Positions 1,532 to 57,721 of a DNA stretch of 60,420 nucleotides are shown here, piece after piece (the stretch's first letter is position 1; each line of letters starts with the position of its first letter). The position numbers and the translations under genes are program-made. The notes beneath the pieces were generated by a model. It had not been told where the DNA came from, made no database searches, and saw nothing but the letters and a program-made list of their open reading frames with translations. Source of the stretch: a virus (Duplodnaviria > Caudoviricetes); IMG/VR virus record IMGVR_UViG_3300042549_004702, positions 1-60,420 of that record; one strand, written 5' to 3'.

Positions 1532-2131
1532 CTATAATCTCGCGGTGACAATGCCTTGCTGATCTTGGTATTTGCCCTGACGGTCACCGTAAGTGACAGC
1601 AGGACGCTCGTCGAGTGCGAGCATAAGCAGCTGGCCGATGCCTTCGTGCGCGTAAACACGCATCGGTAGAGGCGTGGCGTTGGAAAGCTCAAGCACAAGC
1701 TGGCCCGTCCACCCCGGCTCAAGTGGTGTCGTGTTGAGGATGAGTCCACACCGCGCGTAGGTCGATTTGCCAATCACGAGCCCGATGTGATTATCCGGCA
1801 TCGTGATCCGCTCGTGGGTCACGCCCAGCGCGTACGAGTGCGGCGGCAGTGTGTAGTAGGTATCAGGGCTGTTACGATAGTCATACTCGGCATCGAGCGT
1901 GATCAGGCATCGCTCATCGAAACGCTTCGGATCAATGACTGCATCGTTGACCCGTCCATGGACAGCCGTAAACAGCTGCATCCCAGACGCACTCAGCGAC
2001 AGGTCATACCCTGCCGACGACGTGCCAAAGCTGATAACGCGATCGCCGTGGTACTGGCGCACCTGCCCAGCGTGAAAGACATCGAGTATCTCCGGCCCGT
2101 ACTTCTGCCACCATTTGTCACTGCGGATCAT
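1532..2131 (-). CDS. dcd: dCTP deaminase
   Basis: ISFGTSSAGYDL, GKSTYARCG, TPLEPGWTGQLVLE, GKYQDQQG motifs. Confidence 0.95.
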   Translation of the reverse strand: MIRSDKWWQKYGPEILDVFHAGQVRQYHGDRVISFGTSSAGYDLSLSASGMQLFTAVHGRVNDAVIDPKRFDERCLITLDAEYDYRNSPDTYYTLPPHSYALGVTHERITMPDNHIGLVIGKSTYARCGLILNTTPLEPGWTGQLVLELSNATPLPMRVYAHEGIGQLLMLALDERPAVTYGDRQGKYQDQQGIVTARL

Positions 2132-2517: not shown

Positions 2518-2778
2518 TTAATCGGTCACGTCTTCTGCGCGAACGCGAACCGCGCGTCCATCGTGAGCCACGAGCCATGTCAGGTAATATGGCCCCATGT
2601 TGCCGGTTTTTGTGATGATCGAATCGCACTCCATCAGTCCATTGTGATCAGCTACGATATAGAGTCGTTCATCTTCGATGACATCCTGTATCGACCTGCC
2701 AGCGGTCAATGGCAGCTGGATTGCGCGTCCATTGGCAATGTGCCGGGCAAAGATGACATGAGCTTGTTTGTCAGTCAT
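2518..2778 (-). CDS. Hypothetical protein
   Basis: ORF overlapping the bet stop in the same operon. Confidence 0.6.
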   Translation of the reverse strand: MTDKQAHVIFARHIANGRAIQLPLTAGRSIQDVIEDERLYIVADHNGLMECDSIITKTGNMGPYYLTWLVAHDGRAVRVRAEDVTD

Positions 2779-3817
2779 ACATCATGTCATCCACATCATT
2801 AGAATTTGCAGATGCGTAGTGCGGCTGTATTTTCGCACGAGCTGGAGTCGGACTAATATCTGATTCAGAGAATGCCTGACGGTCAGGCTGACCATCGCGC
2901 TCTGCATCGAGCTGATTGAGGCGCGTGCCGTAGCGCGTTATCAGCTTCTCCAGCTCCTCCGGCGACAGCAGCGCAAGTGAATGGTCGAAGAGGTCGGGCA
3001 ATTGCTGGCCGGTCATATTCGCGATGCCTTGCAGGATCAGCGCGTCGGCGACTCCGAATCCTGACAGCCCGTCGAGGATCTGCGAAAGCTGCTCGACCAG
3101 TCCGGTATCAGCTGCGGTCACAATAGGCGCAGGAGCCTCAGAAATGGCGCGTGGTGCTTTTTTGGGTGCGGGTGCTGGTGTTGCAGGAACTGCGACGGCT
3201 GAGGGCGTTACGTCGATGACGTTCGACGCCTGACCCATTTCCTCGCTGGTATAAATGCCGCTCATCTCAGCCGGAAACGCTTTGCGAAGCGAGAGAGCCT
3301 CGGCGCATTTTGCCAGCTGCGCGGCAGGCATACGCGCCCACATCGGATTCGGCCTGACCTGACCAGACGACTTATCCTTGTACGTCTGGCAGTACTCGCT
3401 AAAAAGCGCGACGCCCCAAAATGGCTCACGGCATCCAGCGCGCCATACTCCTACTTTGGCTGCGCGTGGCGGCTCGGTCGCCAGCCACACATCGACCCAC
3501 TGGCCATCTGCGCCACACCAGAACGGGCCAGACTGGCCCTCATAACGTCCGGTCCGATCGGCGATGAGGCGATAGCCATCGATGCCGGTCTGGATCTCGC
3601 ATACCTCACGCTGGGCTTTTGCGTCCCAGCGTTTCACCAAGTGGATCTGGCGGGACAGGATGTCGAGACCCTTTTTCTGCGCTACGGCAAGAAACAATTG
3701 AAACTCGCTCTCGCTGGCCCCTTTGGCGAATGTGTCCCGGATTAATTTTACCTGATCCTGAGAGTACGACTCGGCCATCTGGCCGGGTGTCGTGATCGTA
3801 ATTGCTGTGCTGCTCAT
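2771..3817 (-). CDS. bet: Single-strand annealing protein (Redbeta/RecT family)
   Basis: QTGIDGYRLIADRTG, W-x-x-MP-x-x-QLAKCAEALSLRKAFP, GIYTSEEM. Confidence 0.9.
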   Translation of the reverse strand: MSSTAITITTPGQMAESYSQDQVKLIRDTFAKGASESEFQLFLAVAQKKGLDILSRQIHLVKRWDAKAQREVCEIQTGIDGYRLIADRTGRYEGQSGPFWCGADGQWVDVWLATEPPRAAKVGVWRAGCREPFWGVALFSEYCQTYKDKSSGQVRPNPMWARMPAAQLAKCAEALSLRKAFPAEMSGIYTSEEMGQASNVIDVTPSAVAVPATPAPAPKKAPRAISEAPAPIVTAADTGLVEQLSQILDGLSGFGVADALILQGIANMTGQQLPDLFDHSLALLSPEELEKLITRYGTRLNQLDAERDGQPDRQAFSESDISPTPARAKIQPHYASANSNDVDDMMYD

Positions 3818-3825: not shown

Positions 3826-3978
3826 CTACCAGGTGCTGCGGCTGCGTCGCAGCCAGTCGTTGATTGAATCGGCATTGTCGCGCCGAAGCGTATCGTCCGG
3901 TGCGCGTTCGTCGTGCTCGTCGTCGCAGTCGTCACGATCAAGGTCGTAGTCGTCGTCTCGTCGATTGTCGTCGATCAT
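3826..3978 (-). CDS. 50-aa very acidic protein (not in ORF track)
   Basis: GGAGG RBS; MIDDNRRDDDYDLDRDDCDDEHDERAPDDTLRRDNADSINDWLRRSRSTW. Confidence 0.6.
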   Translation of the reverse strand: MIDDNRRDDDYDLDRDDCDDEHDERAPDDTLRRDNADSINDWLRRSRSTW

Positions 3979-3994
3979 TGCTAATCCTCCACGC

Positions 3995-4028
3995 AAGAAA
4001 AGCCACTCCGATGTAGATCAGAGTGGCT
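3995..4028 (-). terminator. Intrinsic terminator
   Basis: Minus strand AGCCACTCTGAT-CTAC-ATCGGAGTGGCT followed by TTTCTT. Confidence 0.65.
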
Positions 4029-4034: not shown

Positions 4035-4763
4035 TTAGAAACGGTACACGATGCCGTTCAGCAAAACGGCAGAGATCTCGGCAGTCTTGCCGATGCTGAG
4101 GTATCCCTCAGCAGACCAACTGCCTACCAGCCCATCCGCCGACAGCTCAAGATTATAAGCGTCGTCGGACGCCGCCATCTTATCGAAAAGCGCGGTGACG
4201 CTCTCCGCCGTGGTTTTGTGCATTGATCGCCACTCGTCGGTGGCGAAAGCAACGGTCTCGATCAGCTGGGCAGCGCGGCCCACTGGCAACTCCTCGATCG
4301 TCTCAGGTTCGTCCTCCTCGCAGCCGACGAAACCAGCGTGCCGGAACACGGCAACCTTGCGGACGCTGCCGTCCGGCTGCGTCTGATCAACGCTCTCCCG
4401 GACGCTGAAAGCGTACATAGGCGTGATCCCGTGCGCACGAAGGGCGGACTCGAGTGGGGCCATCAGGTACGGCGCGCCGCCGATCATGGCGTATTCGAAG
4501 CAGTTAGCCTCAGTGTGGAGCGGCTCTCCGGCCCACTCCTGGGCGTACGGCAACGCCGATTTTTCGCGCCAAATCGCGCAGCTCGCTATCTTGGCGATCT
4601 GCTGTGCCCTTTGCGCAACCTCGCTTGAGCTGGGCAGAGTCTCAAATGTCAGTAGTGAGCGAATTTCCATGATCTGCTCTGGGGATAGCTCCCCTGAGGT
4701 CACTCCGGCGGCGATCTGCTCAGTAGTGGCGGTGTGCTGGGTAAGGTTGAGTATTCGGTTCAT
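4035..4763 (-). CDS. Csx20/Csx15-like Rossmann-fold protein (putative cOA ring nuclease) with C-terminal extension
   Basis: ILNLTQH...EQI, AMIGG, GITPMYAFSVRES...DGSVRKVAVFRHAGF resembles my recollection of the Csx20 consensus. Confidence 0.55.
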   Translation of the reverse strand: MNRILNLTQHTATTEQIAAGVTSGELSPEQIMEIRSLLTFETLPSSSEVAQRAQQIAKIASCAIWREKSALPYAQEWAGEPLHTEANCFEYAMIGGAPYLMAPLESALRAHGITPMYAFSVRESVDQTQPDGSVRKVAVFRHAGFVGCEEDEPETIEELPVGRAAQLIETVAFATDEWRSMHKTTAESVTALFDKMAASDDAYNLELSADGLVGSWSAEGYLSIGKTAEISAVLLNGIVYRF

Positions 4764-4802
4764 TGTTTCTCCTGTTGTGGGGCCGTGCCCCTGATAGCTG
4801 CG

Positions 4803-4964
4803 TTAGAAAGGGATAGTCTCGTCACCCTCAGCATCGGCGTCAGTGACGATTGGTATCATGCAGAGTCCGCACGGGACACCGTGCCACTCAGGAGAGCCAT
4901 CGCTGGCCATATACGGCCCAGTGACGATGACTCCGTTTTCGCATCGTGGGTCAATGCAGGTCAT
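4803..4964 (-). CDS. 53-aa Cys-rich protein ending DETIPF (not in ORF track)
   Basis: ATGA overlap with the upstream stop; CIDPRC...CGLC; acidic IPF tail. Confidence 0.6.
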   Translation of the reverse strand: MTCIDPRCENGVIVTGPYMASDGSPEWHGVPCGLCMIPIVTDADAEGDETIPF

Positions 4965-5191
4965 CGGCTCACGCGCCAGTTCTTGGCCGTCCGCGCACTG
5001 ATGACGAACTCAACGACGCGAGGCATACCAAATGCCGAAGTACCAGCTGACTCGTCCCACGTCAGCTCGAGAATGCGGCCATCGGCCAATCGATACTCCT
5101 CGCGGCAGCGAGGACCAGCGACGCGCCCCGACTCTGAGTTGACGATGGTTGCGGTGCGCACTAAGGACGCAATTTCGGTCTGGTTGATCAT
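4961..5191 (-). CDS. Hypothetical early protein
   Basis: AGGAG RBS inside the repeated leader; starts MINQTEIA. Confidence 0.65.
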   Translation of the reverse strand: MINQTEIASLVRTATIVNSESGRVAGPRCREEYRLADGRILELTWDESAGTSAFGMPRVVEFVISARTAKNWRVSR

Positions 5192-5255
5192 TGTCGTTTC
5201 TCCTGTTAGCTGCGTTTGCGTCTCCGAGAGCCTCACTGCCCCCGTCGACGATGCG

Positions 5256-5284
5256 AATATATCGCGAGTAATAGTTATTGTCAA
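5256..5284 (-). promoter_or_regulatory. Sigma70-type early promoter
   Basis: TTGACA-17 bp-TATATT on the minus strand. Confidence 0.8.
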
Positions 5285-5847
5285 CAGTTATTTTGCAAGT
5301 CGTTTACTTTTTTCTCGTCCACGACTGGATCATCCCAAACGCGCACTCCGTGAGACTCCGACCTGACGTGAAGCCCGATCTCTACCGCCAGCTCGTGCGC
5401 AGTCCGTGAGCACACGTCGATCGAGCCGCGCGTTGTCGCCGAGAAGCGAATGTACACGCGCTGAGTAGCTGGCACGTCCGTCAAACCGCGCACCAGGCAC
5501 AGCGTACACGTCCCGACGGATCGCACGTCGTAATTGACGTCGTCGATGCGCGGCCACACCTCGACGATAGCGATAGGCTCGAAGGAATACCCAGCGGTGA
5601 TAGCAGCGACCGCCTCTGTGCGTGTCTCCCAGCACTCCGGAGAGCGTCGGGGGAACTGCCCCCCCTGCTCTATGCGCCATCCATCAGCGGCGCGCACGAC
5701 GCGCTGAGCCGTGCTGGCTGCTGCTTCTCTCGCCGCTAGACGCGCATCTAGCGCGCGGTCATTGCGCTTCTTCAGCTGTGTCGGAGTCGCCGACACGCTC
5801 GACGACAGCGACATTGGCCGCAGTCTATTTTCGATTTTGGGCTTCAC
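5281..5847 (-). CDS. Hypothetical protein
   Basis: GTG after AGGAG; long ORF in the early operon. Confidence 0.5.
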   Translation of the reverse strand: MKPKIENRLRPMSLSSSVSATPTQLKKRNDRALDARLAAREAAASTAQRVVRAADGWRIEQGGQFPRRSPECWETRTEAVAAITAGYSFEPIAIVEVWPRIDDVNYDVRSVGTCTLCLVRGLTDVPATQRVYIRFSATTRGSIDVCSRTAHELAVEIGLHVRSESHGVRVWDDPVVDEKKVNDLQNNC

Positions 5848-6167: not shown

Positions 6168-6815
6168 TTATGCCACCTCCAGCTTAGTCCGCCGAAACGG
6201 CGTGACCATTGATGCGCCGGTTGTCCGACCGCAAGATGCCTCGTAGATGAGGCCAAATGACGTCCATGGGCCGATAGGCTCATCATTCGTAATCTCCATC
6301 GGCAGGTGTGGCTCACCCGCCCACTGACCGGAGGGATAACGCTTAATCGGCCACGAGAAATTTAGCCACCGCCAAATAAACGGATCAGCTGTTTGTAGCT
6401 GAGACTCGACCCGCAAAGCGGAAGTCCCCGCCATATCAAGCACTCGCGGCAAAGCCATCGCCGCCGCTAACTCTGACCAGACGGTGCCCTCAAATAGCCC
6501 GTCGTCACCCTGATGGGTGGCTGCGTAGAGCGCGCGCCAGTGGCTGCGCTCCGAGTAGGATCGGGGCTCAAATGTCTCCGTAAACGTCAGCGTGTCGCCC
6601 TCAAGCGCAAGCGTCGCGCGTCGGTAAAGCTGGGGACGCTCATGAGAGCTCCACTCGAAAGTGCAAGTATGCTCGATGCGACGAATTCTCATTGACGTTT
6701 CGTTGTTGGTCAGAGTCTGGAATAAATCCATACTCTCCGGGACATTGGCGGCAAATCCGCCGTATCCGAGGTGCTTCAAAATTGCGATGATGTGCTTGCT
6801 GTCGATCTGGTTCAT
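6168..6815 (-). CDS. Hypothetical protein
   Basis: AGGAG RBS in the repeat; 215 aa ORF. Confidence 0.7.
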   Translation of the reverse strand: MNQIDSKHIIAILKHLGYGGFAANVPESMDLFQTLTNNETSMRIRRIEHTCTFEWSSHERPQLYRRATLALEGDTLTFTETFEPRSYSERSHWRALYAATHQGDDGLFEGTVWSELAAAMALPRVLDMAGTSALRVESQLQTADPFIWRWLNFSWPIKRYPSGQWAGEPHLPMEITNDEPIGPWTSFGLIYEASCGRTTGASMVTPFRRTKLEVA

Positions 6816-6866
6816 GTCGTCTCCTGTGGTTGCGCGGCCCGATCACGAGCCGCTGATAGTTGATAG

Positions 6867-7085
6867 TTATTTTGTAAAAATCCACGCGCGCTTATCGGTA
6901 AGGTCTGCGTCCGACATATCCCCACCGCCGAAGCAATCCTCGCTATTGGCGCAGCCCGTGTGATATGCGACGTACTGACCGTCGGCAGGGATCGGCTCAG
7001 ACTGGGGGTGAATATCGTTGAGGTTGACTGCGTACCCGCAAACTGCGCACCGTTGCGGGGCGTTGATCTGGTTCATTTTACTCAT
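6867..7085 (-). CDS. Small Zn-binding hypothetical protein
   Basis: CAVC...HTGC; lies between two repeat copies. Confidence 0.65.
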   Translation of the reverse strand: MSKMNQINAPQRCAVCGYAVNLNDIHPQSEPIPADGQYVAYHTGCANSEDCFGGGDMSDADLTDKRAWIFTK

Positions 7086-7139
7086 TGTTTCTCCTGTGGT
7101 TGCGCGGCCCGATCACGAGCCGCTGGTTGTGGTGAATGG

Positions 7140-7337
7140 TTAGGCTGCGTCTTCGAGATCCTCGATAGTGAGACTTTCGAGTGCCGGCGACCAGTCGTCG
7201 CCATACTCAAGGCCCATATCGTGAGCCGTGTCCACGACGAGAGCGACAGCGGCTTCGAAGGTCGCCGGTGTGACTTCATTTTGAAAGCAGCCGTCAACCC
7301 AGTTTTGGACATCTCGTCTACTATTCATCTTACGCAT
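7140..7337 (-). CDS. Small acidic hypothetical protein
   Basis: Starts MRKMNSRR after the repeat RBS; acidic C-terminus. Confidence 0.65.
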   Translation of the reverse strand: MRKMNSRRDVQNWVDGCFQNEVTPATFEAAVALVVDTAHDMGLEYGDDWSPALESLTIEDLEDAA

Positions 7338-7395
7338 TGTTTCTCCTGTGGTTGTGCGGCTCGTCGCAGGACAAGCCGCTGATTGTGGTGGGTGA

Positions 7396-7632
7396 TTAGC
7401 GAGAGACTCGCACGGCCCAGGCGTTGCGGCGGCTGCCGTCACCGCCGACGAGTACGACGCGACCCTGAGCGTCACGGCACTCAATCAGGCCGTCGCCGTG
7501 ATCGGCCACCACGGTCAGCCCTGCTTCCGCGATCTCGTCAGTGACGAGCGCGTTCTCGCTGCCCGTGAGCGCGAATCCGCGCCCGTCGTTGTTCAAAGCT
7601 GAGTAAAGGTTGCGTGCTTCTGTGCTGGTCAT
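7396..7632 (-). CDS. First gene of the leftward early operon, hypothetical
   Basis: AGGAG RBS; starts MTSTEARN. Confidence 0.65.
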   Translation of the reverse strand: MTSTEARNLYSALNNDGRGFALTGSENALVTDEIAEAGLTVVADHGDGLIECRDAQGRVVLVGGDGSRRNAWAVRVSR

Positions 7633-7695
7633 TGCGTTTCTCCTGTTAGCTGCGTTTGCGTCTTCGGAAGCCTCATTGCCCCCGTCGATAAATGC

Positions 7696-7725
7696 ACTAT
7701 ACCGGAGACCGTGAATTATTGTCAA
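7696..7725 (-). promoter_or_regulatory. Sigma70-type leftward early promoter
   Basis: TTGACA-18 bp-TATAGT; flanks duplicated at 5189-5299. Confidence 0.8.
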
Positions 7726-7770
7726 CAGTTATTTTGCAAATAAATTATTAAAATTCGTTTACTTTTATTC

Positions 7771-11662: not shown

Positions 11663-12534
11663 AGCTAACCAAGATCCTTAGCAGTCCGATTGCTTTTCAT
11701 CGATGCCTTGCAGAGTTGGCCGGGTCGGTGACATCTGGCTTGATGCTCAGTCAGGCCGTGTATTGGATGGGAAAGACCAAAGATCCGGATGGATGGTTCT
11801 GGAAGACTCAGGACGACTGGTTGGAAGAGACGATGCTCAGTCGAAAAGAGCAGGAATCTGCTCGTCGTCGGCTGAGAGAGATCACTTTTGAGGGGGAATC
11901 TTTGTGGTGTGAGCAGCTGCGTGGCGTACCGGCAAAGCTTTATTATCGAGTCGATATGGACATACTAGAACGCCTCTTAACGGCAGACCAGTATGCCCAA
12001 AAGGAGCAATCCAGTATGCCCAAAAGGGGCATACTAGAAAGCCCAAAAGGGGCATACAAGAACGCCCAAAAGGGGCATACATTCTTATTAGCAGAGACTA
12101 CTACAGAGACTACATCAGAGAGTACGGCAGAGAGTACGACAGAAACCACGGAACCGGCGCGCGCGCCGAGACCTCTTCACGTAGTCGAGAGTGCAGACAT
12201 TGACAGCTTAGGCGACGCATTCGACGAAGCCTACCCTGGCATGTTCAATCAGTGGGGAAAGCTGAAAGACATGCGTGAGCTTGTCAAACGCCTGAATGCG
12301 AATGCATCGCACGTACGAGAGTTTCCATCATGGCTCAAAAGAGCCTACCCCCTAAAAGCGAACAATCACTTTGCGTTCATGGATCTCTTCCCCGAGTTCG
12401 TGAAGCAGTCACCAAAGAAAGCGACTAAGCCTGTCTCCACTTGCGGCAAGTGTGATGCCGGGTACGTCGTCAACGATCAGGGGCTTGCGGCTAAATGCCC
12501 TTGCCAGTCACCACGTCAGGCCAAAGCAGTCTGA
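11659..12534 (+). CDS. Phage replication initiator (lambda O-like)
   Basis: LSQAVYW...WFWKTQDDWLEET wHTH; internal iterons; directly upstream of dnaB. Confidence 0.85.
   Translation: MKLTKILSSPIAFHRCLAELAGSVTSGLMLSQAVYWMGKTKDPDGWFWKTQDDWLEETMLSRKEQESARRRLREITFEGESLWCEQLRGVPAKLYYRVDMDILERLLTADQYAQKEQSSMPKRGILESPKGAYKNAQKGHTFLLAETTTETTSESTAESTTETTEPARAPRPLHVVESADIDSLGDAFDEAYPGMFNQWGKLKDMRELVKRLNANASHVREFPSWLKRAYPLKANNHFAFMDLFPEFVKQSPKKATKPVSTCGKCDAGYVVNDQGLAAKCPCQSPRQAKAV
11991..12080. repeat. Four 23-bp-period iterons, probable replication origin
   Basis: GCCCAAAAGG(G/A)GCA at 11995, 12018, 12041, 12064 inside the initiator gene. Confidence 0.85.
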
Positions 12535-15630: not shown

Positions 15631-16218
15631 ATGGTGCGCGTGATTCGCGATCAGGATATCGACGATCCGACCATCGAAGAATACGTGCACTTCCCAACGC
15701 CCGGACGCCTCGCGCCGTCTGTGCCAGTAGTGGCACAAGATCAGTCACAACCAGTGGCACAGTCAGTGGCACAAGCTCAGAATATCGAGTCTGTGCCCGT
15801 GACTGACTCGGTGGCACAAGGCCAAAATTCCGACCGTGTGACCAGCCCGTCACCGGTGGCACAATCGCCAATAATGCCGCCTGTGCCCGTGACACAACCA
15901 GTGGCACAGATACGTGTGTCACTAGTGGCACAACGGCCAAATCGGAGGTCATGTGCCACTAGTGGCACATTGGCGTTAAGGTCTGCTAAAATCAACAACT
16001 TACCGAAAGGCAAGTCTCACACTGTGCCACCACCAAAAATAGCGGGGCACGAGTGGCGACAAGCCGGTGCGGGATGGTCACTCTGGCGACGTGTGCCCAC
16101 AATTTCGGCGACAGGCAAGCGCACTTCTGAGCGCAAATATGTGCGATACATTACTCAGTCTGCAATCGAAAGGATCTACAATCGGAATGGAAAATCGAAA
16201 CCACAAACCAAGTCTTGA
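15631..16218 (+). CDS. Hypothetical protein with VAQ repeats and a basic C-terminal domain
   Basis: RBS present; the repeats coincide with a DNA 8-mer cluster. Confidence 0.6.
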   Translation: MVRVIRDQDIDDPTIEEYVHFPTPGRLAPSVPVVAQDQSQPVAQSVAQAQNIESVPVTDSVAQGQNSDRVTSPSPVAQSPIMPPVPVTQPVAQIRVSLVAQRPNRRSCATSGTLALRSAKINNLPKGKSHTVPPPKIAGHEWRQAGAGWSLWRRVPTISATGKRTSERKYVRYITQSAIERIYNRNGKSKPQTKS

Positions 16219-30605: not shown

Positions 30606-31286
30606 ATGGAACTGACCACGTCACGACTGATATACCCAGACGCGCCTTCGGGATTGCTGTCTGGGTATTGTTCTATTTGCGGCCAGTACGACATCACGCA
30701 CTTCCACCGCAACGACCTACTGACTCCCACCTCGGCCAACCTCACGGCCATCTTCGACTTTCACCACGAGCACGTTTGCCGCTTCTGTTCCGCTATATGG
30801 CGAGAACCGAAGAAGTATCACCGTGCAATTTACGCCGATCACGAATCGGTGCTATTCCCCGTGATATCTGCGGAGACCGCATCATCGGAGCGTCCGTTAT
30901 GGGCCGACGTTATCCGGCAAATGCCGACAGACCGAGAGCGCGTTATCGTGCTCACCACAGATCCTAAGAAGCGAGTGTGGCCATTTGCGCGCATCAGCTC
31001 CGGTAATGTGGCGTGCATATACCTTCACGATCCATCGCGTGGAGTGTCGGGCAATACCTGGGTAGAGATAGCACGGCTGAGAGAATGCCTTGTGATCATC
31101 GAAGAGGCTTACGAGCTTGGATTTTCGAAGCCAGCGATCGAGGAGTCGCTATTCACGTCCTACAATCAACTACAGGCCGTAGGATTGGCCACAACAACAC
31201 GAATGGAGAAAGCCATATCATCGTATAGGGCCACTCCTGAATTCCTGCCTGCGCTCATTGTGGCGCAAAGAAAGGTAACACTATGA
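30606..31286 (+). CDS. csf1: Type IV Cas8-like large subunit
   Basis: Zn finger CSIC...CRFC, KKRVWP motif; first gene of the csf operon. Confidence 0.72.
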   Translation: MELTTSRLIYPDAPSGLLSGYCSICGQYDITHFHRNDLLTPTSANLTAIFDFHHEHVCRFCSAIWREPKKYHRAIYADHESVLFPVISAETASSERPLWADVIRQMPTDRERVIVLTTDPKKRVWPFARISSGNVACIYLHDPSRGVSGNTWVEIARLRECLVIIEEAYELGFSKPAIEESLFTSYNQLQAVGLATTTRMEKAISSYRATPEFLPALIVAQRKVTL

Positions 31287-32719
31287 CCACATCAAACACT
31301 GGGATAATCGCGCCGTACCGATTCACGGCAAAGGCCACATCCACGGTTGCCCACGGAGAAGCCGGAGCCAACTCGACCGGGGCCAATAACACGACACTCT
31401 TTGCCCGGGAGTTGACATTGCTTCAGCGTGACCAGCTCTCGTACAGCAGCGACAAGGCGCAAGCGGCGATTGAATCACTGATGAACGTGATGCCGATCAC
31501 CGAGTCGTCTGTCGAGTTCCTTCGAACGCTATCAGGCGGCGAATTGATCGCGACACTATTTGCTGCTCAATTTCCGATCATTTATCGCGGCGAAGGAGAA
31601 GGACTATTCGCCGGACTCGAGCGTTACCAGTACCTGACAACGCGCCTGACTGACTCAGCCGTAGCTTGCACTACGCTTGCAACTGCGTGGGCGTACGTCT
31701 CGCGAAAGCTGAATCTGACCGCGCCATCAGCCTCGGCGCATATGCCGTTGATGGCACTCTTTGCACTGCCGAAGCCGATACAGGCGGCTGCGCTTGCGTC
31801 AGTCCTGAAAGCTCCTGAGATGGTCGTTATGGGCGCGCGAATGCTAGCCGAAGGACTCAAGGCCACTAACTGGAAATACGCAGAAGCCGCAGATCGAGAG
31901 ACCGAAGAGAAGGCTCAGTACAACGTGACATCTACGCAGCTTCTCGAGTTGTCGGCGAATAGGGGCAGCGTGCTAGCCGTGCGAATCCCTGCGATATCGG
32001 GCAACTCGCTTCGCCACAACATACTACGCGCACCAGGTGCGACGCGCCTTTTGTCGCATCTTGGACTTGGGCCGAATCAAACAATGGTACCGATCGCCGT
32101 TGAGCGGTTCCTGTACTCTGGCGGCAACACCGTCAAGGGCGCGAAGGCTCCGGGGGCGGCGGATCTACTAGAAGCAAAGGTGCGTAGTCACTATCCGATC
32201 GTTGACGCACTTGGCGGATCGTTCGATATGTTCCTGCTCACTCGGTCGCAGGTCAGCGTAAATAGCTGGATAGTATGCCGGGAGAATAACTGGATCACGG
32301 AGCGTAAGACAGAGGGAAGCATCGGATCCGATGTATCGATCTTCGATCTTATCAGCGAGGTGACACGTACTCGGTCAGGCATTGGCGGCAAGGACAAGGA
32401 GTCGGGACAGATGATCTTTGCCTACGAAGCTTTGGCCGCTCAGACAGAGATACTTGTAGAGGTCAGCTTCCAGCCATACACGCAGTTTGTCACGATTGGC
32501 GCGGTGATGCAGGCGTTGACGGACTGGAACACGGAAGGCGCGTTTCTTGGCGCGAAGTCGGCGCAGGGGCACTCGCAGTGGTTGCCAGACTTCCCGGATG
32601 ATGATCGATGGGCACTTGCTGCCGACTACATCGCACACCTCGACAAGAACCGAGAGACGTTGCGCGATGGACTCATCAAGGCCACATTCGGAACGGAGGT
32701 GCAGCTTTGTGGAGCGTAA
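31283..32719 (+). CDS. csf2: Type IV Cas7 backbone with a ~180-aa insertion
   Basis: STVAHG...NTTLFARE, IPAISGNSLRH, LYSGG, TRTR, QMIFAYE, LGAKSAQGH. Confidence 0.88.
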   Translation: MTTSNTGIIAPYRFTAKATSTVAHGEAGANSTGANNTTLFARELTLLQRDQLSYSSDKAQAAIESLMNVMPITESSVEFLRTLSGGELIATLFAAQFPIIYRGEGEGLFAGLERYQYLTTRLTDSAVACTTLATAWAYVSRKLNLTAPSASAHMPLMALFALPKPIQAAALASVLKAPEMVVMGARMLAEGLKATNWKYAEAADRETEEKAQYNVTSTQLLELSANRGSVLAVRIPAISGNSLRHNILRAPGATRLLSHLGLGPNQTMVPIAVERFLYSGGNTVKGAKAPGAADLLEAKVRSHYPIVDALGGSFDMFLLTRSQVSVNSWIVCRENNWITERKTEGSIGSDVSIFDLISEVTRTRSGIGGKDKESGQMIFAYEALAAQTEILVEVSFQPYTQFVTIGAVMQALTDWNTEGAFLGAKSAQGHSQWLPDFPDDDRWALAADYIAHLDKNRETLRDGLIKATFGTEVQLCGA

Positions 32720-49353: not shown

Positions 49354-52300
49354 ATGCTTATCGTCCTTGATTCTACTACTCGAAAACTTCAAGCCAAGAT
49401 GTCTATGGCTGCGATGGATCTTAATTGCTCAGTGACGTGCACGTATGGCGACAGCACATCAAGCACGTTCGTTGAAGGCATCTATCCGTCAACCTTAAAT
49501 GGAACAACACTGGTAGACATCCTGCCGGCTCCTGCTGCGTCTACTCGGCGAGTCGTCAAGTCGATTATTCTGTTCAACGACGATACTGACACGCACACTA
49601 TTACTTTGTATCTCGCAGATGGCGCAGCAAGTTACCCTATCACGAAGGTAACTTTAGCTCCGGGTGCAAGTTGGGCCAGCGATGATCAGAGTGGCATAAA
49701 TATTGGCGGAGCAGTCACCGACGGAAGCAAGGGCGATATCAATGTCAGCGGCGGTGGTACGACATGGACGATTGCAACTGGTGCTGTCAGTACCAGTAAG
49801 ATGGGCGGCGACATTACCGCGGCGGGTAAAGCGTTACTCGATGATGCTAATGCGTCGGCTCAACGAACGACGCTAGGGTTGGGGTCTATTGCAACTCAGA
49901 ATTCGAGCAGTGTTAGTATTACGGGTGGCTCGATTGCAGGTATCACCGATCTTGCCATTGCTGATGGTGGCACGGGACAATCGACGCGACAATCCGCAAT
50001 GGATGCGTTGGCCGGATCTGTCACTAATGGTCAATTTTTGCGGGGCGATGGTGCTAATGTCTTAATGGCCGCAATCAAAGCGTCAGACGTCCCCACGCTT
50101 AATCAGAACACGACAGGTACGGCATCGAACGTAACAGGTACGGTCGCAGTTGTGAATGGTGGCACAGGCGCAACGACTGCGAGCGATGCGAGAACGAACT
50201 TGGGACTTGGCACTATCGCAACTCAGAGTTCGGCGAGTGTCAGCATCACAGGCGGATCGATTGCCGGTATTACGGATCTCGCAGTGGCCGACGGTGGAAC
50301 GGGCGCATCTACAGCCGCCAACGCTTTGACCAATCTTGGGGCATATCCGGCAAGCAATCCAAGCGGATATACCAGTAATACGGGAACCGTCACGTCAGTA
50401 GGTGGCACGGGAACGGTCAACGGCATTACCTTGACTGGCTCAGTTACCACATCGGGCAACCTGACGCTTGGCGGGACATTGAGCAATGTGAGCTTAACAT
50501 CGCAAGTAACAGGTACTCTACCGATCGCTAATGGTGGCACGGGGCTAACTGCTACGCCAACAAATGGTCAAATCGATATCGGCAATGGAACCGGTTTTGC
50601 GCGAACAACCTTAACAGCTGGATCAAATATTACGATCACCAATGGCGCAGGCACTATTACTATTGCCTCGACGTCATCAGGAGTGACAGATACTGATAAG
50701 GGCGACATTGTTGTTAGCGGTGGTGGTACCGTTTGGACAATCGACTCGGCTGTAGTGTCGAATGCAAAACTTGCCACGATGAACGCAAATACGATTAAAG
50801 CTCGTGTTGCTGGATCTACAGGCGCACCTGAAGACGCGACGCTAACTCAGGTACTTGATCTTACGGGCGGATCTGCTCAGGGTAGTATTCTATATCGAGG
50901 TGCTAGTACGTGGACGACTTTGGCACCTGGCACCACTGGTCAGTTTCTGAGAACGAACGGATTTGCGGGTAACCCTGAATGGAATACTATTCCCACATAC
51001 GACGTTACAGGCACAAATACTGGCGATCAGAATGTATTCAGCGTCGTTGCCGTTGCTGGTCAATCTAATATTGTCGCCGACACTACGTCGGATACACTGA
51101 CTATTGCAGCTGGTAGTAACATTACAATTACGACAAACGCGACATCGGATACGCTCACTATTGCTTCGACAGCCGCAGGCGTCACGAATGGCGATAAGGG
51201 CGACATTGTAGTATCAGGTAGCGGTGATGTTTGGACGATTGATTCTGGCGTAGTGTCGAATGCAAAACTAGCTACTATGAATGCGAGCACGATCAAAGCT
51301 CGAATCACCGGTTCAACGGGCGCACCTGAAGATGCAACAATGACGCAAGTACTTGATCTTACCGGCGGATCGGCGCAGGGTAGTATTTTGTATCGAGGGG
51401 CTAGTACGTGGACAGCCTTAGCCCCTGGTACTTCTGGTCAGTTACTGCAAACTCAAGGAGCAGGCGCGAATCCTGCGTGGGCTGGCTTAACTGTCGGAAC
51501 ATCGGCAATATCTAATGGTAGTTCAGGTCGCGTACTATACAATAATAGTGGAGTGCTTGGAGAGTTGGGCACAACGGGTAGCGGTAACGTAGTGCTTGCA
51601 ACTGGGGCAAATGTTGTAAACTTGGTACTATCAGGCACATTGTCAGCGAGTGGTGGAATCGGCACAAGCGGTCAGGTATTGCAAAGTACAGGCTCTGGTG
51701 TTCAGTGGGCGGCTGGCGGTGGCGGTGGTGTTAGTGCTAATTTTTTAATCAATGCTGACTTTGCTGTTAGTCAACGTGGAACCTCTTTTACCAACTCGAC
51801 AACTAATAACGCAACCCCCAATACTGATGGCAACTATTTATTAGATCGCTGGGTGTTGTTGAGTAATGGTAATAATATTGTCAATGTGACCCAAGGTTCC
51901 GCGTCAACCAATACACTAAATATTGCTACGGATGTCACCTTCACGGCGGTATCAGCTCAAAAATTTGGTTTCTTTCAGCCTATTGAAAACATCAATTGCC
52001 GTAGTTTGCGAAGCACGACGGTTACCTTTAGTTTTTATGCACAGGTATCCAATACCCGAATGGGTAATATTAAAGCGGCTATTGTGCAATGGACTGGTAC
52101 GACTGATAGTATTACTCGCGATATTGTTTCAGCATGGGATACAGAAGGCACTAATCCTACGTTAGTTACATCTTGGTCATATGTAAACTCTTCGCCAACT
52201 GATTTAGGTGTTACCACTTCATGGGTAAGGTATTCAGTGACGGGTACTATCAGCGCGTCTGCAAATAATATTGGCGTGTTTATTTGGTGCGATGATACCA

Positions 52301-52773
52301 CGTTTGACGCAAGTGATACCCTAACCATAGCTGCGGCAAAATTGGAAACAGGCACTACACCAACCTCTTTTGAGGCGTTGGATTATGCAAGCAATATAGC
52401 TCAGTGTCAGCGATATTACTATCGACGGGTAGCTGATAGAATAGATGACGTTATCTGCATGATTACAATTTATAGTATAACTTCAGGCGGTGTATGGGGC
52501 ACACTAGTAAATATGCCAGTTGAGTTGCGCATAGGTAATCCCACCTGTAGATATTCCTCGGTCACACATATGTCGATTGTGTCAATTACCGGTACGGCGA
52601 GGTTTGCCATTACCTCTGGCGGCAGTCTTAGCGGCAGTAAAAGGTCACTTACCGCCTTTGGTGGTTTAACGTCATCGTCATTTATTAACGCGGCTAATTA
52701 CGCAAACGGTATGGCCTTATTTATTGTTTTTAATACAGCTAGTGGATGGTTTGATGCTGCGGCTGAATTATGA
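49354..52773 (+). CDS. Long tail fibre
   Basis: Repeated LAIADGGTG and KGDIVVSG...WTID units; C-terminal NFLINADF...CQRYY domain. Confidence 0.85.
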   Translation: MLIVLDSTTRKLQAKMSMAAMDLNCSVTCTYGDSTSSTFVEGIYPSTLNGTTLVDILPAPAASTRRVVKSIILFNDDTDTHTITLYLADGAASYPITKVTLAPGASWASDDQSGINIGGAVTDGSKGDINVSGGGTTWTIATGAVSTSKMGGDITAAGKALLDDANASAQRTTLGLGSIATQNSSSVSITGGSIAGITDLAIADGGTGQSTRQSAMDALAGSVTNGQFLRGDGANVLMAAIKASDVPTLNQNTTGTASNVTGTVAVVNGGTGATTASDARTNLGLGTIATQSSASVSITGGSIAGITDLAVADGGTGASTAANALTNLGAYPASNPSGYTSNTGTVTSVGGTGTVNGITLTGSVTTSGNLTLGGTLSNVSLTSQVTGTLPIANGGTGLTATPTNGQIDIGNGTGFARTTLTAGSNITITNGAGTITIASTSSGVTDTDKGDIVVSGGGTVWTIDSAVVSNAKLATMNANTIKARVAGSTGAPEDATLTQVLDLTGGSAQGSILYRGASTWTTLAPGTTGQFLRTNGFAGNPEWNTIPTYDVTGTNTGDQNVFSVVAVAGQSNIVADTTSDTLTIAAGSNITITTNATSDTLTIASTAAGVTNGDKGDIVVSGSGDVWTIDSGVVSNAKLATMNASTIKARITGSTGAPEDATMTQVLDLTGGSAQGSILYRGASTWTALAPGTSGQLLQTQGAGANPAWAGLTVGTSAISNGSSGRVLYNNSGVLGELGTTGSGNVVLATGANVVNLVLSGTLSASGGIGTSGQVLQSTGSGVQWAAGGGGGVSANFLINADFAVSQRGTSFTNSTTNNATPNTDGNYLLDRWVLLSNGNNIVNVTQGSASTNTLNIATDVTFTAVSAQKFGFFQPIENINCRSLRSTTVTFSFYAQVSNTRMGNIKAAIVQWTGTTDSITRDIVSAWDTEGTNPTLVTSWSYVNSSPTDLGVTTSWVRYSVTGTISASANNIGVFIWCDDTTFDASDTLTIAAAKLETGTTPTSFEALDYASNIAQCQRYYYRRVADRIDDVICMITIYSITSGGVWGTLVNMPVELRIGNPTCRYSSVTHMSIVSITGTARFAITSGGSLSGSKRSLTAFGGLTSSSFINAANYANGMALFIVFNTASGWFDAAAEL

Positions 52774-53022: not shown

Positions 53023-53267
53023 TGGCAGAGATAGCGATCACCCCGCAGTATCGATTGATACTGAATCGCTGGACGGCTGGCACTATCACGATTCGACAAG
53101 TAGAGTTGTTCGTAAAAACAAAATGGCTGACGCGCGAACAGGCTGACGACATATACACGCACGATCGAGCGCAGACACCGCTTGTGATTGCCGATCCGTA
53201 CAGCCCCGAGACCGTCACCACGTACCGCATAGCTTTTGACGATAATCTGATCCATAGTGAGGTATAG
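53022..53267 (+). CDS. XkdX-like small protein
   Basis: FVKTKWLTREQADDI. Confidence 0.55.
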   Translation: MAEIAITPQYRLILNRWTAGTITIRQVELFVKTKWLTREQADDIYTHDRAQTPLVIADPYSPETVTTYRIAFDDNLIHSEV

Positions 53268-53315
53268 GTCGCGACCTAAAAACGCGCTACAGGTCAATTG
53301 TGGGGCTTGATTTTT

Positions 53316-54728
53316 ATGTTTGATAGCACCAATCTGTACTACGATCCGTCTGATCCGAATCAACCATACGATCCATCACTTCCGCCTGGCGGTGGAGGCT
53401 CAGGCAGTGGTGGGCCGCCGTCACCTGTACCACCATCACCAGACAAGACCCTGACCGAACTGCAGATCGACGAGAATGCCACGCTTGCTCTTGCCTATGG
53501 CCAGCACGTGGTAGCGGGTAACCTTGTCGAGTATGAGCACACGTCCGGCCCTCCGCCTTCGTGCAAGTTTATCGTTGCGCTTGGTAATGGCCCGTGGAAC
53601 GCGATATCACGCGCCTGGTATGCGGGCGAGTCGATTTCAGCGTCTGCAAGCTCGACTACTCCGGGATACAAGTTTCATCCTGGCACGTTGTCCACAGGTA
53701 CGGGAGACGCTGTGCAAGGATTGCCGATGTTCTTTCCGTCGTCACCGACGTACTCGCGCACGGCATATTCTGAGGTACTGCTGTCAACGGATCAGTCAGT
53801 AGAGGAGCGGCCAGATAAGTTCCGCGCTGTGTGCGAATGCCTAAAGGTTGCGGATTATGACAGCGTTGGTAACCTCGTTGATGCCGGATCCTACTCGACG
53901 AATCCGGCGCGTATTGCGGCTGATCTGCTTCAGCGTGCGGGGCTTCTGACTCGCGTTGACTGGGCAAGCTGGACGACGTGGAAGAACTATTGCGACGTGC
54001 TTATTGCGTGGGGTGGATCGACCATCAAGCGGTTTGAGTCGAACCTTGTGCTAACTCAGTCGATGTCGATACTGAATGCGTTGACGATTGTATGTCAGTC
54101 AAGCTGCACGTATTGGCAGGACAACGGCCAGTCGATCGAGTTCTTGCCGGTACTGAGTTCGTCGAATGTCGTGCTTGAAACTCACGCCTTCACCGAGTCG
54201 AATTGCCGAAGTGTGAGTCTGTACGTGGCGGATCAGCGAAGCCTTCCGACTGGGTACAAGGCGACGTTTCGTGATGTGGATACCGAGTACCTTGAAGAGG
54301 TGTCGGTCGAGTATTTCGATGCTGATCTTGAGGAGTACACGAGCGGCCAGAATCGCGTAGAGATACAGCTACCGCCGATGAAGCGATCGCAGGCAGAGCG
54401 CATTTGCTATTGGCGCACGCAGCTTGACGGAGTGTGTAATGCTGGCATCGAGCTGATAGCGTTTGGCGATGCTTACGCCTTGCTTCCGGGTGACTTGATT
54501 ACGATCGCGCACGAGTTACTGCTGCCGTCGAATGCAGTAGAAAGCTCGTTGTTCGGATCTCACGTGTTTGGGTCAACTCGCTTTTGGGAGAGGTCAAGTC
54601 CGATCTATCGCGCAATGGTGACAGAGACTGAGGAGCTTGAGGAAGGGCCGCAGCTCAAGCGCATTCGGGCAAAGATCCTAGTAACTACTCCATACTCAGA
54701 CACCGCGCACTCAGTACCTGTGCCATAA
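53316..54728 (+). CDS. Tail tip/hub protein (gpJ-like core)
   Basis: LAYGQH, YSTNPA, YCD, LLPGDLITI. Confidence 0.75.
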   Translation: MFDSTNLYYDPSDPNQPYDPSLPPGGGGSGSGGPPSPVPPSPDKTLTELQIDENATLALAYGQHVVAGNLVEYEHTSGPPPSCKFIVALGNGPWNAISRAWYAGESISASASSTTPGYKFHPGTLSTGTGDAVQGLPMFFPSSPTYSRTAYSEVLLSTDQSVEERPDKFRAVCECLKVADYDSVGNLVDAGSYSTNPARIAADLLQRAGLLTRVDWASWTTWKNYCDVLIAWGGSTIKRFESNLVLTQSMSILNALTIVCQSSCTYWQDNGQSIEFLPVLSSSNVVLETHAFTESNCRSVSLYVADQRSLPTGYKATFRDVDTEYLEEVSVEYFDADLEEYTSGQNRVEIQLPPMKRSQAERICYWRTQLDGVCNAGIELIAFGDAYALLPGDLITIAHELLLPSNAVESSLFGSHVFGSTRFWERSSPIYRAMVTETEELEEGPQLKRIRAKILVTTPYSDTAHSVPVP

Positions 54729-54740
54729 GGAGACTTGATT

Positions 54741-55073
54741 ATGCCGACATTGCCATATCAGCCCAGCTACGTGATATCAGGACGACAACTTCAGAATGCC
54801 GTTGTGGACTACTCCGATGATCGTACTCGATTCGGCCGCACGAAGGCGGGACGATACTTTGAGTACGACTTGGAATTCAAGAATCGCCAGCTTGACGAGT
54901 TCCAGGCATTCCAGACCTTCTACAACCAGAACTTTCCGGCGACCGCCTTTGACTGGCTTGAGCCATATCAGAACGTGACGCATACTGGCTACTTCATTTC
55001 AGCGTTAGAGTATCAGATCAATTTCGACAATTCGATTGATTACAAGGTGCGAATTCAGACGACGACTACTTGA
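54741..55073 (+). CDS. Distal tail/gpM-like minor tail protein
   Basis: 110 aa; F-x-x-FY...AFDW-x-x-P pattern. Confidence 0.6.
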   Translation: MPTLPYQPSYVISGRQLQNAVVDYSDDRTRFGRTKAGRYFEYDLEFKNRQLDEFQAFQTFYNQNFPATAFDWLEPYQNVTHTGYFISALEYQINFDNSIDYKVRIQTTTT

Positions 55074-55204
55074 CGAGGATGTTGGTTCTTGGTATCCTTT
55101 ACTCGAAATTTGAGGCTATCAAGTTTTGGGACTATCCCTGAGAACATGTAACTTTTGCCAAGACGCATGTTCTCAGGGTACTAAAATTCTCCCTGGCAAA
55201 AACG

Positions 55205-55237
55205 AAAAGGCCGCGCCATTATTGACGCGGCCTTTTT
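55205..55237. terminator. Bidirectional intrinsic terminator
   Basis: AAAAGGCCGCG-N10-CGCGGCCTTTTT between the convergent arms. Confidence 0.85.
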
Positions 55238-55262
55238 GCTTTGTTGGTCGATAGCTACTATC

Positions 55263-56360
55263 TCAGATCCTCATCGGCATCACGATATACTGGTAATCGT
55301 AGTCACCGTCATCTGTGGGTCTCATCACGATCTGTGACGCACTGTCCTTGTAGTCGATGGTCATATTTACAGCATTGCAAGCGGTGAAGAAGTCGGCCAC
55401 GTACCCAGACTTCAGCCCTATCGACTGACCTATCAACGCTTCCGGGACGTTTGACGGCACATCCTCGCCAGCGTCTCCCACGTCCTGAGATGCAGCCGAT
55501 ATACTCACGAGGTCGCGATTCATCGTCAGCTTGACCGACGATGACTGAGCGTCTGCAACCAACGCAACTCGACGTAACGCAGACGCAAACTCTTGAGCGT
55601 TGACTGCGATCCGCTCAGGATGATTCGCCATCACAAGCCGATAGTTAGGGAACTGACCAGCAAGTACACGGCTGGCAATGACGCGCTTGCCGACCTCAAA
55701 GAACACCGTAGTGTCTTCGTATCCGATCGATATAGTGTCCGATGACGACGCCAGTTTTGACACAAGGTCGAGTGTCTTGGCGGGAATCAGCACGTCAATA
55801 GGCGCGCCTTCGTAGTACACGTCACGCTCGATGTATGCCATTCGGTGACTGTCTGTGGCGACCATTCGCGCCTTGCCTTCGGCCAGTTCAAACTTGACGC
55901 CATTGAGCGCGTATCGCGATTCTTCCTTCGATGCGGCGAACTGTACGCGATCAATCATTGTGCTGAGAATCGATGCAGATATCGGTAGCAGGGAAGAAGG
56001 AGCAGTGCGCCTGTCGGGATATCCGTCAGGGTGAGTTGTCGAAAGCCTAAATCGGCTGCGCTGGCACTTGATCACGGCTTCGGTGTCGTTCGTGGTAATC
56101 GTGATCTCAGCGTCTGGCAGTGCCTTTACGATGTCGTGAAAACGCTTTGCGGGAATGCACGCTGATCCTTCGCTATCGATCGTCGCATCAGCGAAGGTCG
56201 CGATATGCACGTCAAGGTCTGTAGCTCGAAGATTCAATCCCCCACTCGTTGAGGATATATGCACATTTTGGAGTATCGGAATTGAGGACTTGCGCTCAAC
56301 TGCGCCTTGCAGGAATGCGAGTTCTTTGAGGAGTGATGATTTGCCTATTCTGAAGTTCAT
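55263..56360 (-). CDS. dnaN: DNA polymerase III beta sliding clamp
   Basis: IPIL, ATDLD, SRYALNG, ATDSHR, GQFPNY, IVMPMRI. Confidence 0.96.
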   Translation of the reverse strand: MNFRIGKSSLLKELAFLQGAVERKSSIPILQNVHISSTSGGLNLRATDLDVHIATFADATIDSEGSACIPAKRFHDIVKALPDAEITITTNDTEAVIKCQRSRFRLSTTHPDGYPDRRTAPSSLLPISASILSTMIDRVQFAASKEESRYALNGVKFELAEGKARMVATDSHRMAYIERDVYYEGAPIDVLIPAKTLDLVSKLASSSDTISIGYEDTTVFFEVGKRVIASRVLAGQFPNYRLVMANHPERIAVNAQEFASALRRVALVADAQSSSVKLTMNRDLVSISAASQDVGDAGEDVPSNVPEALIGQSIGLKSGYVADFFTACNAVNMTIDYKDSASQIVMRPTDDGDYDYQYIVMPMRI

Positions 56361-56587
56361 TTGTTGTCGTTTCCTTTTGTGTTGTTGAGGTTGTCGGTGT
56401 CGAGTGAGTCCGGCCAGTCGGTATCAGATATCTCGATACCTGGCATTGTCGATATGTTGACCGCCGGTTCGGACTCGTTGTAGGTCTGAGTGATCGTCAC
56501 TCCGTTGCCCTTGCCGTGATTGATCAGTAGCCCCGTGATTACGCCCATTGCGTAAATAAAGATCAGGGCTGCGGTAGTTGTGTCCAT
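56357..56587 (-). CDS. Small single-TM protein with acidic tail
   Basis: MDTTTAALIFIYAMGVITGLLI; stop overlaps the dnaN start. Confidence 0.55.
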   Translation of the reverse strand: MDTTTAALIFIYAMGVITGLLINHGKGNGVTITQTYNESEPAVNISTMPGIEISDTDWPDSLDTDNLNNTKGNDNK

Positions 56588-57720: not shown

Positions 57721-57721
57721 A

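Follow-up and report, generated by a model that had tools for sequence, protein, structure and literature searches.

A phage-encoded member of a viral sister family of Csx20 as a candidate ring nuclease against type III signalling

The question raised by this locus is whether a protein encoded by a virus, at positions 4035 to 4763 (minus strand) of the IMG/VR record IMGVR_UViG_3300042549_004702, is a relative of Csx20, an accessory protein of type III CRISPR loci, and whether it could serve the virus by degrading the cyclic oligoadenylate signal of such loci. The whole stretch of DNA that was analysed (60,420 bp) is called the window, and the protein is called P0001. An earlier note on this DNA had likened the N-terminal ~147 amino acids (aa) of P0001 to Csx20 and described the remainder as an unrelated acidic extension of ~95 aa. 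Judged by sequence profiles, residues 1–147 are genuinely, if remotely, homologous to Csx20 and belong to a sister family, not to Csx20 itself. The open reading frame (ORF) is laid out as follows.

4035..4763, minus strand: whole ORF of P0001, ATG start, 242 aa plus stop codon
4323..4763, minus strand: N-terminal Csx20-like, putatively CARF-derived domain, residues 1–147
4494..4574, minus strand: lineage-specific loop insertion, residues 64–90 (IWREKSALPYAQEWAGEPLHTEAN...), of low confidence in the structural model
4038..4310, minus strand: C-terminal orphan domain, residues 152–242, modelled as three helices and a four-stranded sheet

The N-terminal motifs on which the earlier note relied were all found in the translation of P0001, where residues 3–19, 90–101 and 112–147 read ILNLTQHTATTEQIAAG, EYAMIGGAPYLM and GITPMYAFSVRESVDQTQPDGSVRKVAVFRHAGFVG, respectively. 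P0001 carries all the motifs of its family, whose domain measures ~135 aa: NLTQH (residues 6–10), MIGGAP(Y/F)(L/F)M (MIGGAP at 93–98), YAFSxRE (YAFSxR at 117–122), DGSV (DG at 131–132) and FRHxGF (140–145). These motifs are conserved in an alignment of 41 members (A1) and in another of 107 members (A2); Q16 and K136 are further conserved positions of the domain. The loop insertion was seen in A1 in the closest relatives only, and the nearest relative, P0002, is 82% identical to P0001 across the full length.

To relate this domain to Csx20, P0001 was compared with the NCBIfam hidden Markov model (HMM) CAS_Csx20 (NF040559), which matched with an E value of 1.7e-6 and 28.4 bits, aligning residues 23–145 with profile positions 6–121 of 124 and thus spanning nearly the whole domain. 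Two Csx20 models of PADLOC also matched (E 1.7e-6 and 7.6e-5); the PADLOC collection includes a model named CARF2--CARF_HEPN_CSX20. When 107 diverse relatives were scanned singly, 106 of them matched NF040559 at E≤0.01 (best E 2e-10, still below the curated threshold), and no other NCBIfam family was found among the 107. As a reference we used genuine Csx20 proteins from one bacterial class, in which 26 of 40 genomes scored over the cut-off (142–171 bits, as against 28 bits for P0001), and aligned 25 domains. Their consensus (LIFSHxLTxxQ, VLVQGDFGAT, IP(V/I)Y(S/A)TTxR, DG(S/T)V and FKHxRF) agrees with the Csx20 motifs given in the earlier note, and the profile comparison that it had called for, performed with hhalign between the window family and these 25 domains, returned a probability of 95.2% and an E value of 2.9e-8 over 106 columns. 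Ten of the 20 columns that are invariant in Csx20 are identical in P0001, 'invariant' being an overstatement for 25 domains of a single class. In Csx20/P0001 numbering they are H7/H10, Q13/Q16, G75/G96, A76/A97, P91/P115, Y93/Y117, R98/R122, F116/F140, H118/H142 and F121/F145, and hence include two histidines, an arginine, a tyrosine and a glutamine; T96 of Csx20 was aligned by hhalign with S120 of P0001. Nine of the ten shared residues are at least 90% conserved in A2, while Y117 is invariant in A1 only. The two families also agree in domain size (~125–145 aa) and in the order of their motifs. Taken together, the matches to NF040559 and PADLOC, their recurrence in 106 of 107 relatives and the hhalign result place the resemblance well beyond chance. 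Scans of P0001 against Pfam (E≤1) and PHROGs gave no match, hence none to DUF1874, and the statement that the protein does not resemble AcrIII-1 was borne out. Searches of the PDB by sequence, with either the single protein or the family profile, matched no chain.

In a rapid maximum-likelihood analysis of 133 domains, a branch with 100% support in the Shimodaira–Hasegawa-like approximate likelihood ratio test (SH-aLRT) separated the 25 Csx20 domains from the 107 relatives. The two families coexist in one genome (G005), which has a true Csx20 at 157 bits and a window-family protein at 36 bits, and the A2 profile, which gave 150–180 bits for family members, did not pick up that Csx20 at E≤1e-5. 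In P0001 the sequence IGGAPYLM stands in place of the QGDFGAT loop of Csx20. Because P0001 fails the cut-off (28 versus 70 bits) and falls in a separate clade, we assign it to a sister family; the hhalign, HMM and tree results therefore indicate that it is homologous to Csx20 without being Csx20 proper, so that the likeness to Csx20 first proposed holds at the level of profile homology and not beyond it. P0001 further differs from Csx20 by its loop insertion and its 91-aa C-terminal domain.

The sister family is large and mainly viral. Of 2476 candidates from a word-indexed search, 724 proved homologous at E≤1e-3, and when 1.84 billion cluster representatives were scanned exhaustively with HMMER, 1706 matched at E≤1e-3 (clusters counted at 50% identity) and 1238 at E≤1e-10. 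Relatives were encoded by 201 of 226 pattern matches in IMG/VR and by 57 of 60 in a set with one genome for each of 185,579 species; among 50,697 records of cultured phages only two matched, those of Rhodothermus phage RM378 (Rm378p002) and of Pasteurella phage Pm86. In being overwhelmingly viral the family differs from Csx20, which is encoded in cas loci. Most members are stand-alone domains of 125–145 aa; some are tandem duplications of the N-terminal domain (P0049, P0072, P0096, P0123, P0126, P0128, P0125 and P0142), and a Pfam scan of ten long forms recognized DUF4116 alone, in one protein. A protein database tags the family with the accession label PF27247.1.

We then considered what the predicted structure adds. 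An AlphaFold2 model of P0001 built from a 107-row alignment had a mean predicted local distance difference test score (pLDDT) of 90.9 and a predicted template modelling score (pTM) of 0.67. The N-terminal domain was modelled as an alpha/beta domain with a long beta-hairpin, mostly at pLDDT >90; residues 70–90 formed a low-confidence loop (58 and 63 for the pLDDT blocks of residues 71–90), and residues 160–242 formed a separate domain. When two copies of residues 1–150 were modelled with two adenosine monophosphate (AMP) molecules, a homodimer was predicted, with an interaction score (ipSAE) of 0.71 as compared with 0.00 for the best control, at least 97% of contacts shared between runs and a partner pLDDT of at least 84; among proteins with solved structures, 20 of 30 pairs and one of 23 single chains reach this mark, counts that are only a rough guide here. 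The interface is symmetric and involves residues 40–49, 94–106, 117–121 and 143–149. The N-terminal domain is thus predicted to form a symmetric homodimer, as has been modelled for Csx20 in PMC12409355, and a dimeric unit fits the natural tandem duplications of the domain.

The structural comparison with CARF and SAVED proteins was less decisive. The Foldseek check that the earlier note had suggested gave no PDB match at E≤0.001, while VIA-align placed CARF and SAVED chains over residues 1–150 at Z values of 4.0–5.6: Cam1 with bound cA6 at 5.6 (111 residues aligned, root-mean-square deviation 3.1), Csm6 at 5.1, Crn1 (Sso2081) at 4.0 and Can2 at 4.0, and among the SAVED chains of cyclic-oligonucleotide-based antiphage signalling systems (CBASS), Cap14 at 5.5 and Cap5 at 5.5 and 5.1. 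All these values lie below 8, the range that the tool itself calls common, and they are no better than those of unrelated Rossmann-like proteins. As modelled, P0001 resembles Crn1 and the CARF sensor domains of Cam1, Csm6 and Can2 in its Rossmann-like alpha/beta arrangement over residues 1–150 and in a putatively dimer-forming helix after a glycine-rich loop, and it differs from them in having no sequence match to any PDB chain. The fold matches, which concern a predicted model, therefore agree with a CARF-like fold and do not establish it.

Two members of the family lie in settings that connect them with CRISPR or anti-CRISPR genes. In a Synergistaceae assembly (L018), a 580-aa ORF (P0266) consists of a WYL domain (E 6e-26) followed by a C-terminal domain of the window family, which groups with this family and not with Csx20 in the tree. 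P0266 lies directly downstream of, and on the same strand as, genes of III-D type for Cas10 and four Csm3/Cas7 proteins. A search of longer proteins for fused forms returned one protein only, of the same lineage. Csx20 likewise occurs either alone or as a C-terminal fusion, in its case to putatively Csx1-like proteins; two genuine Csx20 domains form the C-termini of ~585-aa frames from the class Thermoanaerobacteria (L078:1489-3249, minus strand, and L088:145-1890, plus strand). The second setting is Pasteurella phage Pm86 (L093:309-699), where an unannotated 66-aa ORF comprises the C-terminal half of a family gene only and is 50% identical to the window protein over residues 81–146; directly after it lies an unannotated 71-aa ORF with weak similarity to CopG ribbon-helix-helix (RHH) proteins (E 0.03). 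This layout matches a csx20-aca14 operon reported in Pasteurella multocida, in which Aca14 is a 66-residue RHH repressor, which is followed by an operon coding for AcrIF6 and Cas5-IF homologues, and for which co-option of csx20 for counter-defence has been suggested (PMC13551039). That the Pm86 genes are the published pair we infer from the organism, the gene order and the 66-aa length. The window copy differs from this arrangement in that no RHH or helix-turn-helix (HTH) match was found beside it (Pfam, PHROGs). We also screened for adjacency to CRISPR arrays with a k-mer script, which flagged five of 138 sequences. Only one of these (L044) was convincing, and it was rejected as a CRISPR link because the gene is part of a Mu-like prophage integrated near the array: the prophage (L044:2565-9764; CI-type repressor, rve/Mu transposase, TniB-like ATPase and Gam) has the family gene a short way past Gam and lies ~9 kb from a 10-repeat array at the start of the locus.

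The earlier note had spoken of Csx20 as being proposed to degrade cyclic oligoadenylate; in the meantime Csx20 has been demonstrated to cleave cyclic tetra-adenylate (cA4) in vitro (Hoikkala et al., PMC12409355). The reading that we favour, at about even probability, is that the window protein is a dimeric cA4 ring nuclease by which the phage counters type III CRISPR signalling. Under this reading the host RNA polymerase would transcribe the gene from a strong sigma-70-like promoter, and the Csx20-like domain would pair as a symmetric homodimer. The loops NLTQH (after strand 1) and MIGGAP (after the central strand) would form a CARF-type pocket, which the polar residues S120, R122, K136 and H142 of the hairpin would complete for cA4 or a close cyclic oligoadenylate. 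The ring would then be cut to linear products, as by Csx20, and with loss of the second messenger made by the host Cas10, CARF and SAVED effectors would stay off. The homology to Csx20, the predicted homodimer together with the tandem duplications, the viral setting, the type III-linked P0266, the Pm86 layout and a promoter upstream of the gene (P2, below) all support this reading. Of its elements, the homology, the size and viral distribution of the family, the one type III-linked fusion and the promoter-like cassettes were observed, the dimer is predicted, and the ligand, the catalysis, the timing and the anti-CRISPR effect of P0001 are inferred.

Several observations weigh against it. The score of 28.4 bits is far under the curated NF040559 cut-off of 70 bits, and half of the 20 Csx20 columns taken as invariant are lost, including the QGD of QGDFGAT, W37 and N61, with the caveat that the single class behind the genuine set makes 'invariant' too strong a word; false Csx20 positives were removed by Hoikkala et al. 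(PMC12409355) on the basis of absolutely conserved residues. Foldseek found nothing in the PDB at its threshold, the best VIA-align match (Z 6.4, 88 residues aligned, root-mean-square deviation 2.6) is the C-terminal domain of an aspartate racemase, and the CARF and SAVED chains reach only the values given above. The type III fusion represents a single lineage, as P0266 and P0267 are 91% identical. A Csm1-type Cas10 scored over the cut-off in only four of 50 family-bearing genomes, in one of them on the same contig, and many family copies sit in Saccharibacteria or Paceibacterota assemblies. The window gene is neither in nor beside a type III locus, the setting expected of a Csx20; a search of the window found no Cas10, and no CRISPR array was found in it. 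Among 859 neighbouring ORFs from 123 loci (of 137; 14 were dropped for want of an ORF over the match) no conserved neighbour gene was found, the largest cluster covering eight loci, and no Aca-type HTH or RHH gene was recognized beside the window gene in Pfam and PHROGs scans of the 107/76-aa and 53-aa ORFs and RecT. Lastly, our literature searches yielded no assay of a phage Csx20-like protein or family member.

Some of these observations would be met by a protein that remains a counter-defence factor and works differently, either as a sponge or on signals other than cA4, such as those of CBASS or other cyclic oligonucleotides. We consider this unlikely, yet worth weighing seriously. It would account for the 46 of 50 family genomes with no Csm1-type Cas10 over the cut-off, for the many Saccharibacteria and Paceibacterota assemblies and for the partial loss of the Csx20 glycine-loop motif, and in the structural comparison the SAVED domains of CBASS effectors do as well as CARF ones (Cap14 Z 5.5; Cap5 5.5 and 5.1). 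A sponge role has been raised for Csx15 (Hoikkala et al., PMC12409355), and the abstract of a preprint of October 2026 describes Csx15 as a ring nuclease of broad specificity that forms a bridge between CRISPR and CBASS. However, both histidines, the arginine and the Ser/Thr position of active Csx20 are retained, the sole cellular fusion is in a type III and not a CBASS locus, and where assemblies are incomplete, a missing Cas10 says little. A much bolder proposal goes further than the favoured cA4 ring nuclease and strikes us as rather improbable: that this is the most abundant phage family of cyclic-oligonucleotide nucleases, of common stock with Csx20 but evolving chiefly in viruses and acting broadly against type III CRISPR and CBASS, that in this clade the C-terminal domain adds a second function, such as docking onto a host effector or the Cas10 complex, and that the protein belongs to a multi-layer anti-CRISPR kit with the array-less Cas6e-, Csf1- and Csf2-like proteins of the same phage (listed below).

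An acidic linker, CEEDEPETIEE, joins the C-terminal domain to the N-terminal one, and residues 148–242 contain 18 D/E and six K/R by our count. The acidity noted earlier is thus real, and the 'extension' is predicted to be a folded domain rather than a mere tail, with pLDDT >90; folded alone (34 rows) it reached a pLDDT of 92.4 and a pTM of 0.82. Structure searches with it gave no informative match (best VIA Z 4.6; best Foldseek E against BFVD 0.13), and an atlas feature search gave no usable one, every structure row having a template modelling (TM) score <0.4. A search of proteins of 133–424 aa found the domain solely as a fusion to a window-type N-terminal domain, in 24 proteins; tblastn detected it in none of the 137 loci retrieved, and neither domain recurred elsewhere in the window. 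In a syntenic sibling phage (L095) the N-terminal domain is 94% identical and forms a 156-aa protein without the C-terminal domain, the DNA match skipping window positions 4046-4308, that is, exactly this domain. Other extensions are present on the relatives P0031 and P0053. The C-terminal domain is therefore an optional add-on, and its presence or absence between sibling phages offers a simple handle on its contribution.

With such a domain attached, P0001 might be a ligand-sensing or regulatory module whose Csx20-like domain senses a nucleotide and whose C-terminal domain relays the signal, for example to control the recombination or nucleotide-metabolism genes of the phage or its Cas-derived proteins. 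The only cellular fusion partner of the family is a WYL-type regulator, the window gene lies beside recT and near a dCTP deaminase gene, and the phage encodes Cas6e-, Csf1- and Csf2-like genes. We nevertheless judge this role improbable, given that most members stand alone at 125–145 aa with no output domain, that the C-terminal domain is dispensable in the sibling phage and has no DNA-binding or enzymatic match, and that there is no conserved neighbour to regulate. A fixed operon partner was considered and rejected, since clusters of neighbouring genes span at most eight of the 123 loci (TrmB-like HTH, eight loci; terminase large subunit, seven; terminase small subunit, five; SNF2, four). Least probable of all, and very doubtful, is that only a small Rossmann-like fold is shared and the activity is unrelated, for example in nucleotide or cofactor metabolism: aspartate racemase C-terminal domains and pantothenate kinase head the structural rows with Z at least equal to that of any CARF protein and every VIA Z is <8, but the profile evidence points specifically to Csx20, recurs in 106 of 107 members and meets no rival NCBIfam family, the matching residues are invariant polar ones and not just hydrophobic core, and a type III-D operon contains this domain too.

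A cA4 ring nuclease in this phage would stand beside AcrIII-1/Crn2 (DUF1874) and AcrIII-2 (viral SAVED), the proven viral ring nucleases, with which it would share the destruction of cA4 by a virus to blind type III effectors. It differs from AcrIII-1/Crn2 in fold and family, with no DUF1874 in P0001, and its likeness to SAVED, the domain of AcrIII-2, is at the level of the fold only (Z ~5). Phage homologues of Csx20 are already in print, mentioned in passing (PMC12409355, PMC13551039), the former reporting that four out of 28,114 cultured-phage genomes encode Csx20 (five in the preprint version). The present analysis adds the delimitation of a large viral sister family, its type III-linked fusion and its optional orphan domain. 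If members of this family are active, degradation of the signal would be a far commoner answer of phages to type III CRISPR, or to cyclic oligoadenylate signalling at large, than four in 28,114 genomes suggest, and they might provide compact off-switches for cA4-based tools.

Regarding its expression, the gene lies in a block of leftward genes with the following features.

7696-7725, minus strand: promoter cassette P1, near-identical to P2, TTGACA plus −10 hexamer, 11/12 consensus positions
5256..5284, minus strand: sigma-70-like promoter P2, TTGACA, 17 nucleotide (nt) spacer, TATATT, 11/12 matches
5192..5248, minus strand: conserved leader (~55 nt) with Shine-Dalgarno sequence AGGAGAAAC, common to P1 and P2
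4964..5191, minus strand: 76-aa ORF that opens the P2 unit, ATG at 5191, start set by leader, Shine-Dalgarno sequence and ATG
4803..4964, minus strand: second small ORF, 53 aa, Cys-rich, no Pfam or PHROG family match
4750..4789, minus strand: ribosome-binding cassette (repeat D4, ~40 nt), overlapping the start codon of the Csx20-like gene
3826-3996: 56-aa ORF
2771..3817, minus strand: RecT-family annealing protein (Pfam RecT 4.8e-29, phrog_2780 1.3e-64)
1532..2131, leftward block: dCTP deaminase

P2 lies ~490 nt upstream of the start of the Csx20-like gene. Promoter, leader, Shine-Dalgarno sequence and ATG form cassettes that span 7620-7740 and 5190-5300 on the minus strand, each heading a leftward unit, and the leader (repeat D5) is 93% identical between them over 54 nt. 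The total of promoter-like sites in the region was not above that of shuffled controls (4 versus a mean of 2.2, SD 1.5), so P1 and P2 are credible because the cassette is duplicated and not because of the number of sites. The ORFs listed at 7396..7725 and 4961..5284 probably start in truth at the ATGs after the shared leader, giving proteins of 79 and 76 aa; for the longer reading of the latter, 107 aa, neither Pfam nor PHROGs gave a significant match. Transcription from P2 would run through the 76-aa and 53-aa ORFs and the Csx20-like gene into recT, which on this strand is the large gene that follows downstream. The leftward block is probably expressed early. Of the early anti-defence gene proposed before, the likely early transcription unit and the phage setting stand, and a counter-defence role would fit the remarks on phage csx20 homologues in PMC12409355 and PMC13551039. 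The D4 cassette (..CGGGCCGCGCAACCACAGGAGAAACAATG.., minus strand) precedes four leftward genes, at 4750-4789, 6802-6841, 7072-7111 and 7324-7363.

The window as a whole is a near-complete siphovirus genome (94% by CheckV) with genes for the terminase large subunit, portal, major head protein and tape measure, and with others for a DnaB-like helicase, an O-like replication initiator, a SNF2-type helicase, a methyltransferase and a thymidylate synthase. A direct terminal repeat (1-138 / 60283-60420; 138 nt, 99% identical) suggests a complete genome, terminally redundant or circularly assembled; IMG/VR classes it as linear. Three other genes of the window resemble cas genes.

56617-57291, minus strand: Cas6e-like gene (E 5.9e-41)
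30606-31286, plus strand: type IV Csf1/Cas8-like gene (E 1e-10)
31283-32719, plus strand: gene for a 478-aa protein whose C-terminal half includes a Csf2/Cas7-like region (E 1.3e-27)

The Csx20-like gene would hence be the fourth Cas-derived component of this genome and not the third, as had been counted. The Csf1- and Csf2-like genes are flanked by an exonuclease gene and the portal gene. The DNA of L095 matches the window on either side of 53225-59793 and not inside it; because the match stops across this interval, the block with the Cas6e-like gene is an accessory region, missing from L095.

Several repeats were also observed elsewhere in the window. A 300-nt internal repeat, 76% identical, lies at 50659-50958 and 51157-51456 inside a gene for 1139 aa (49354-52773). 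Four overlapping repeat copies with a spacing of 23 nt (..CCAGTATGCCCAAAAGG..) at 11959-12073, within the O-like replication initiator gene, look like origin iterons. Finally, three 45-nt tandem units with ends GTGGCACA are present at 15766-15974, inside an ORF at 15631-16218, together with a nearby pair of TGTG(T/C)CACTAGTGGCACA sites inside the same ORF.

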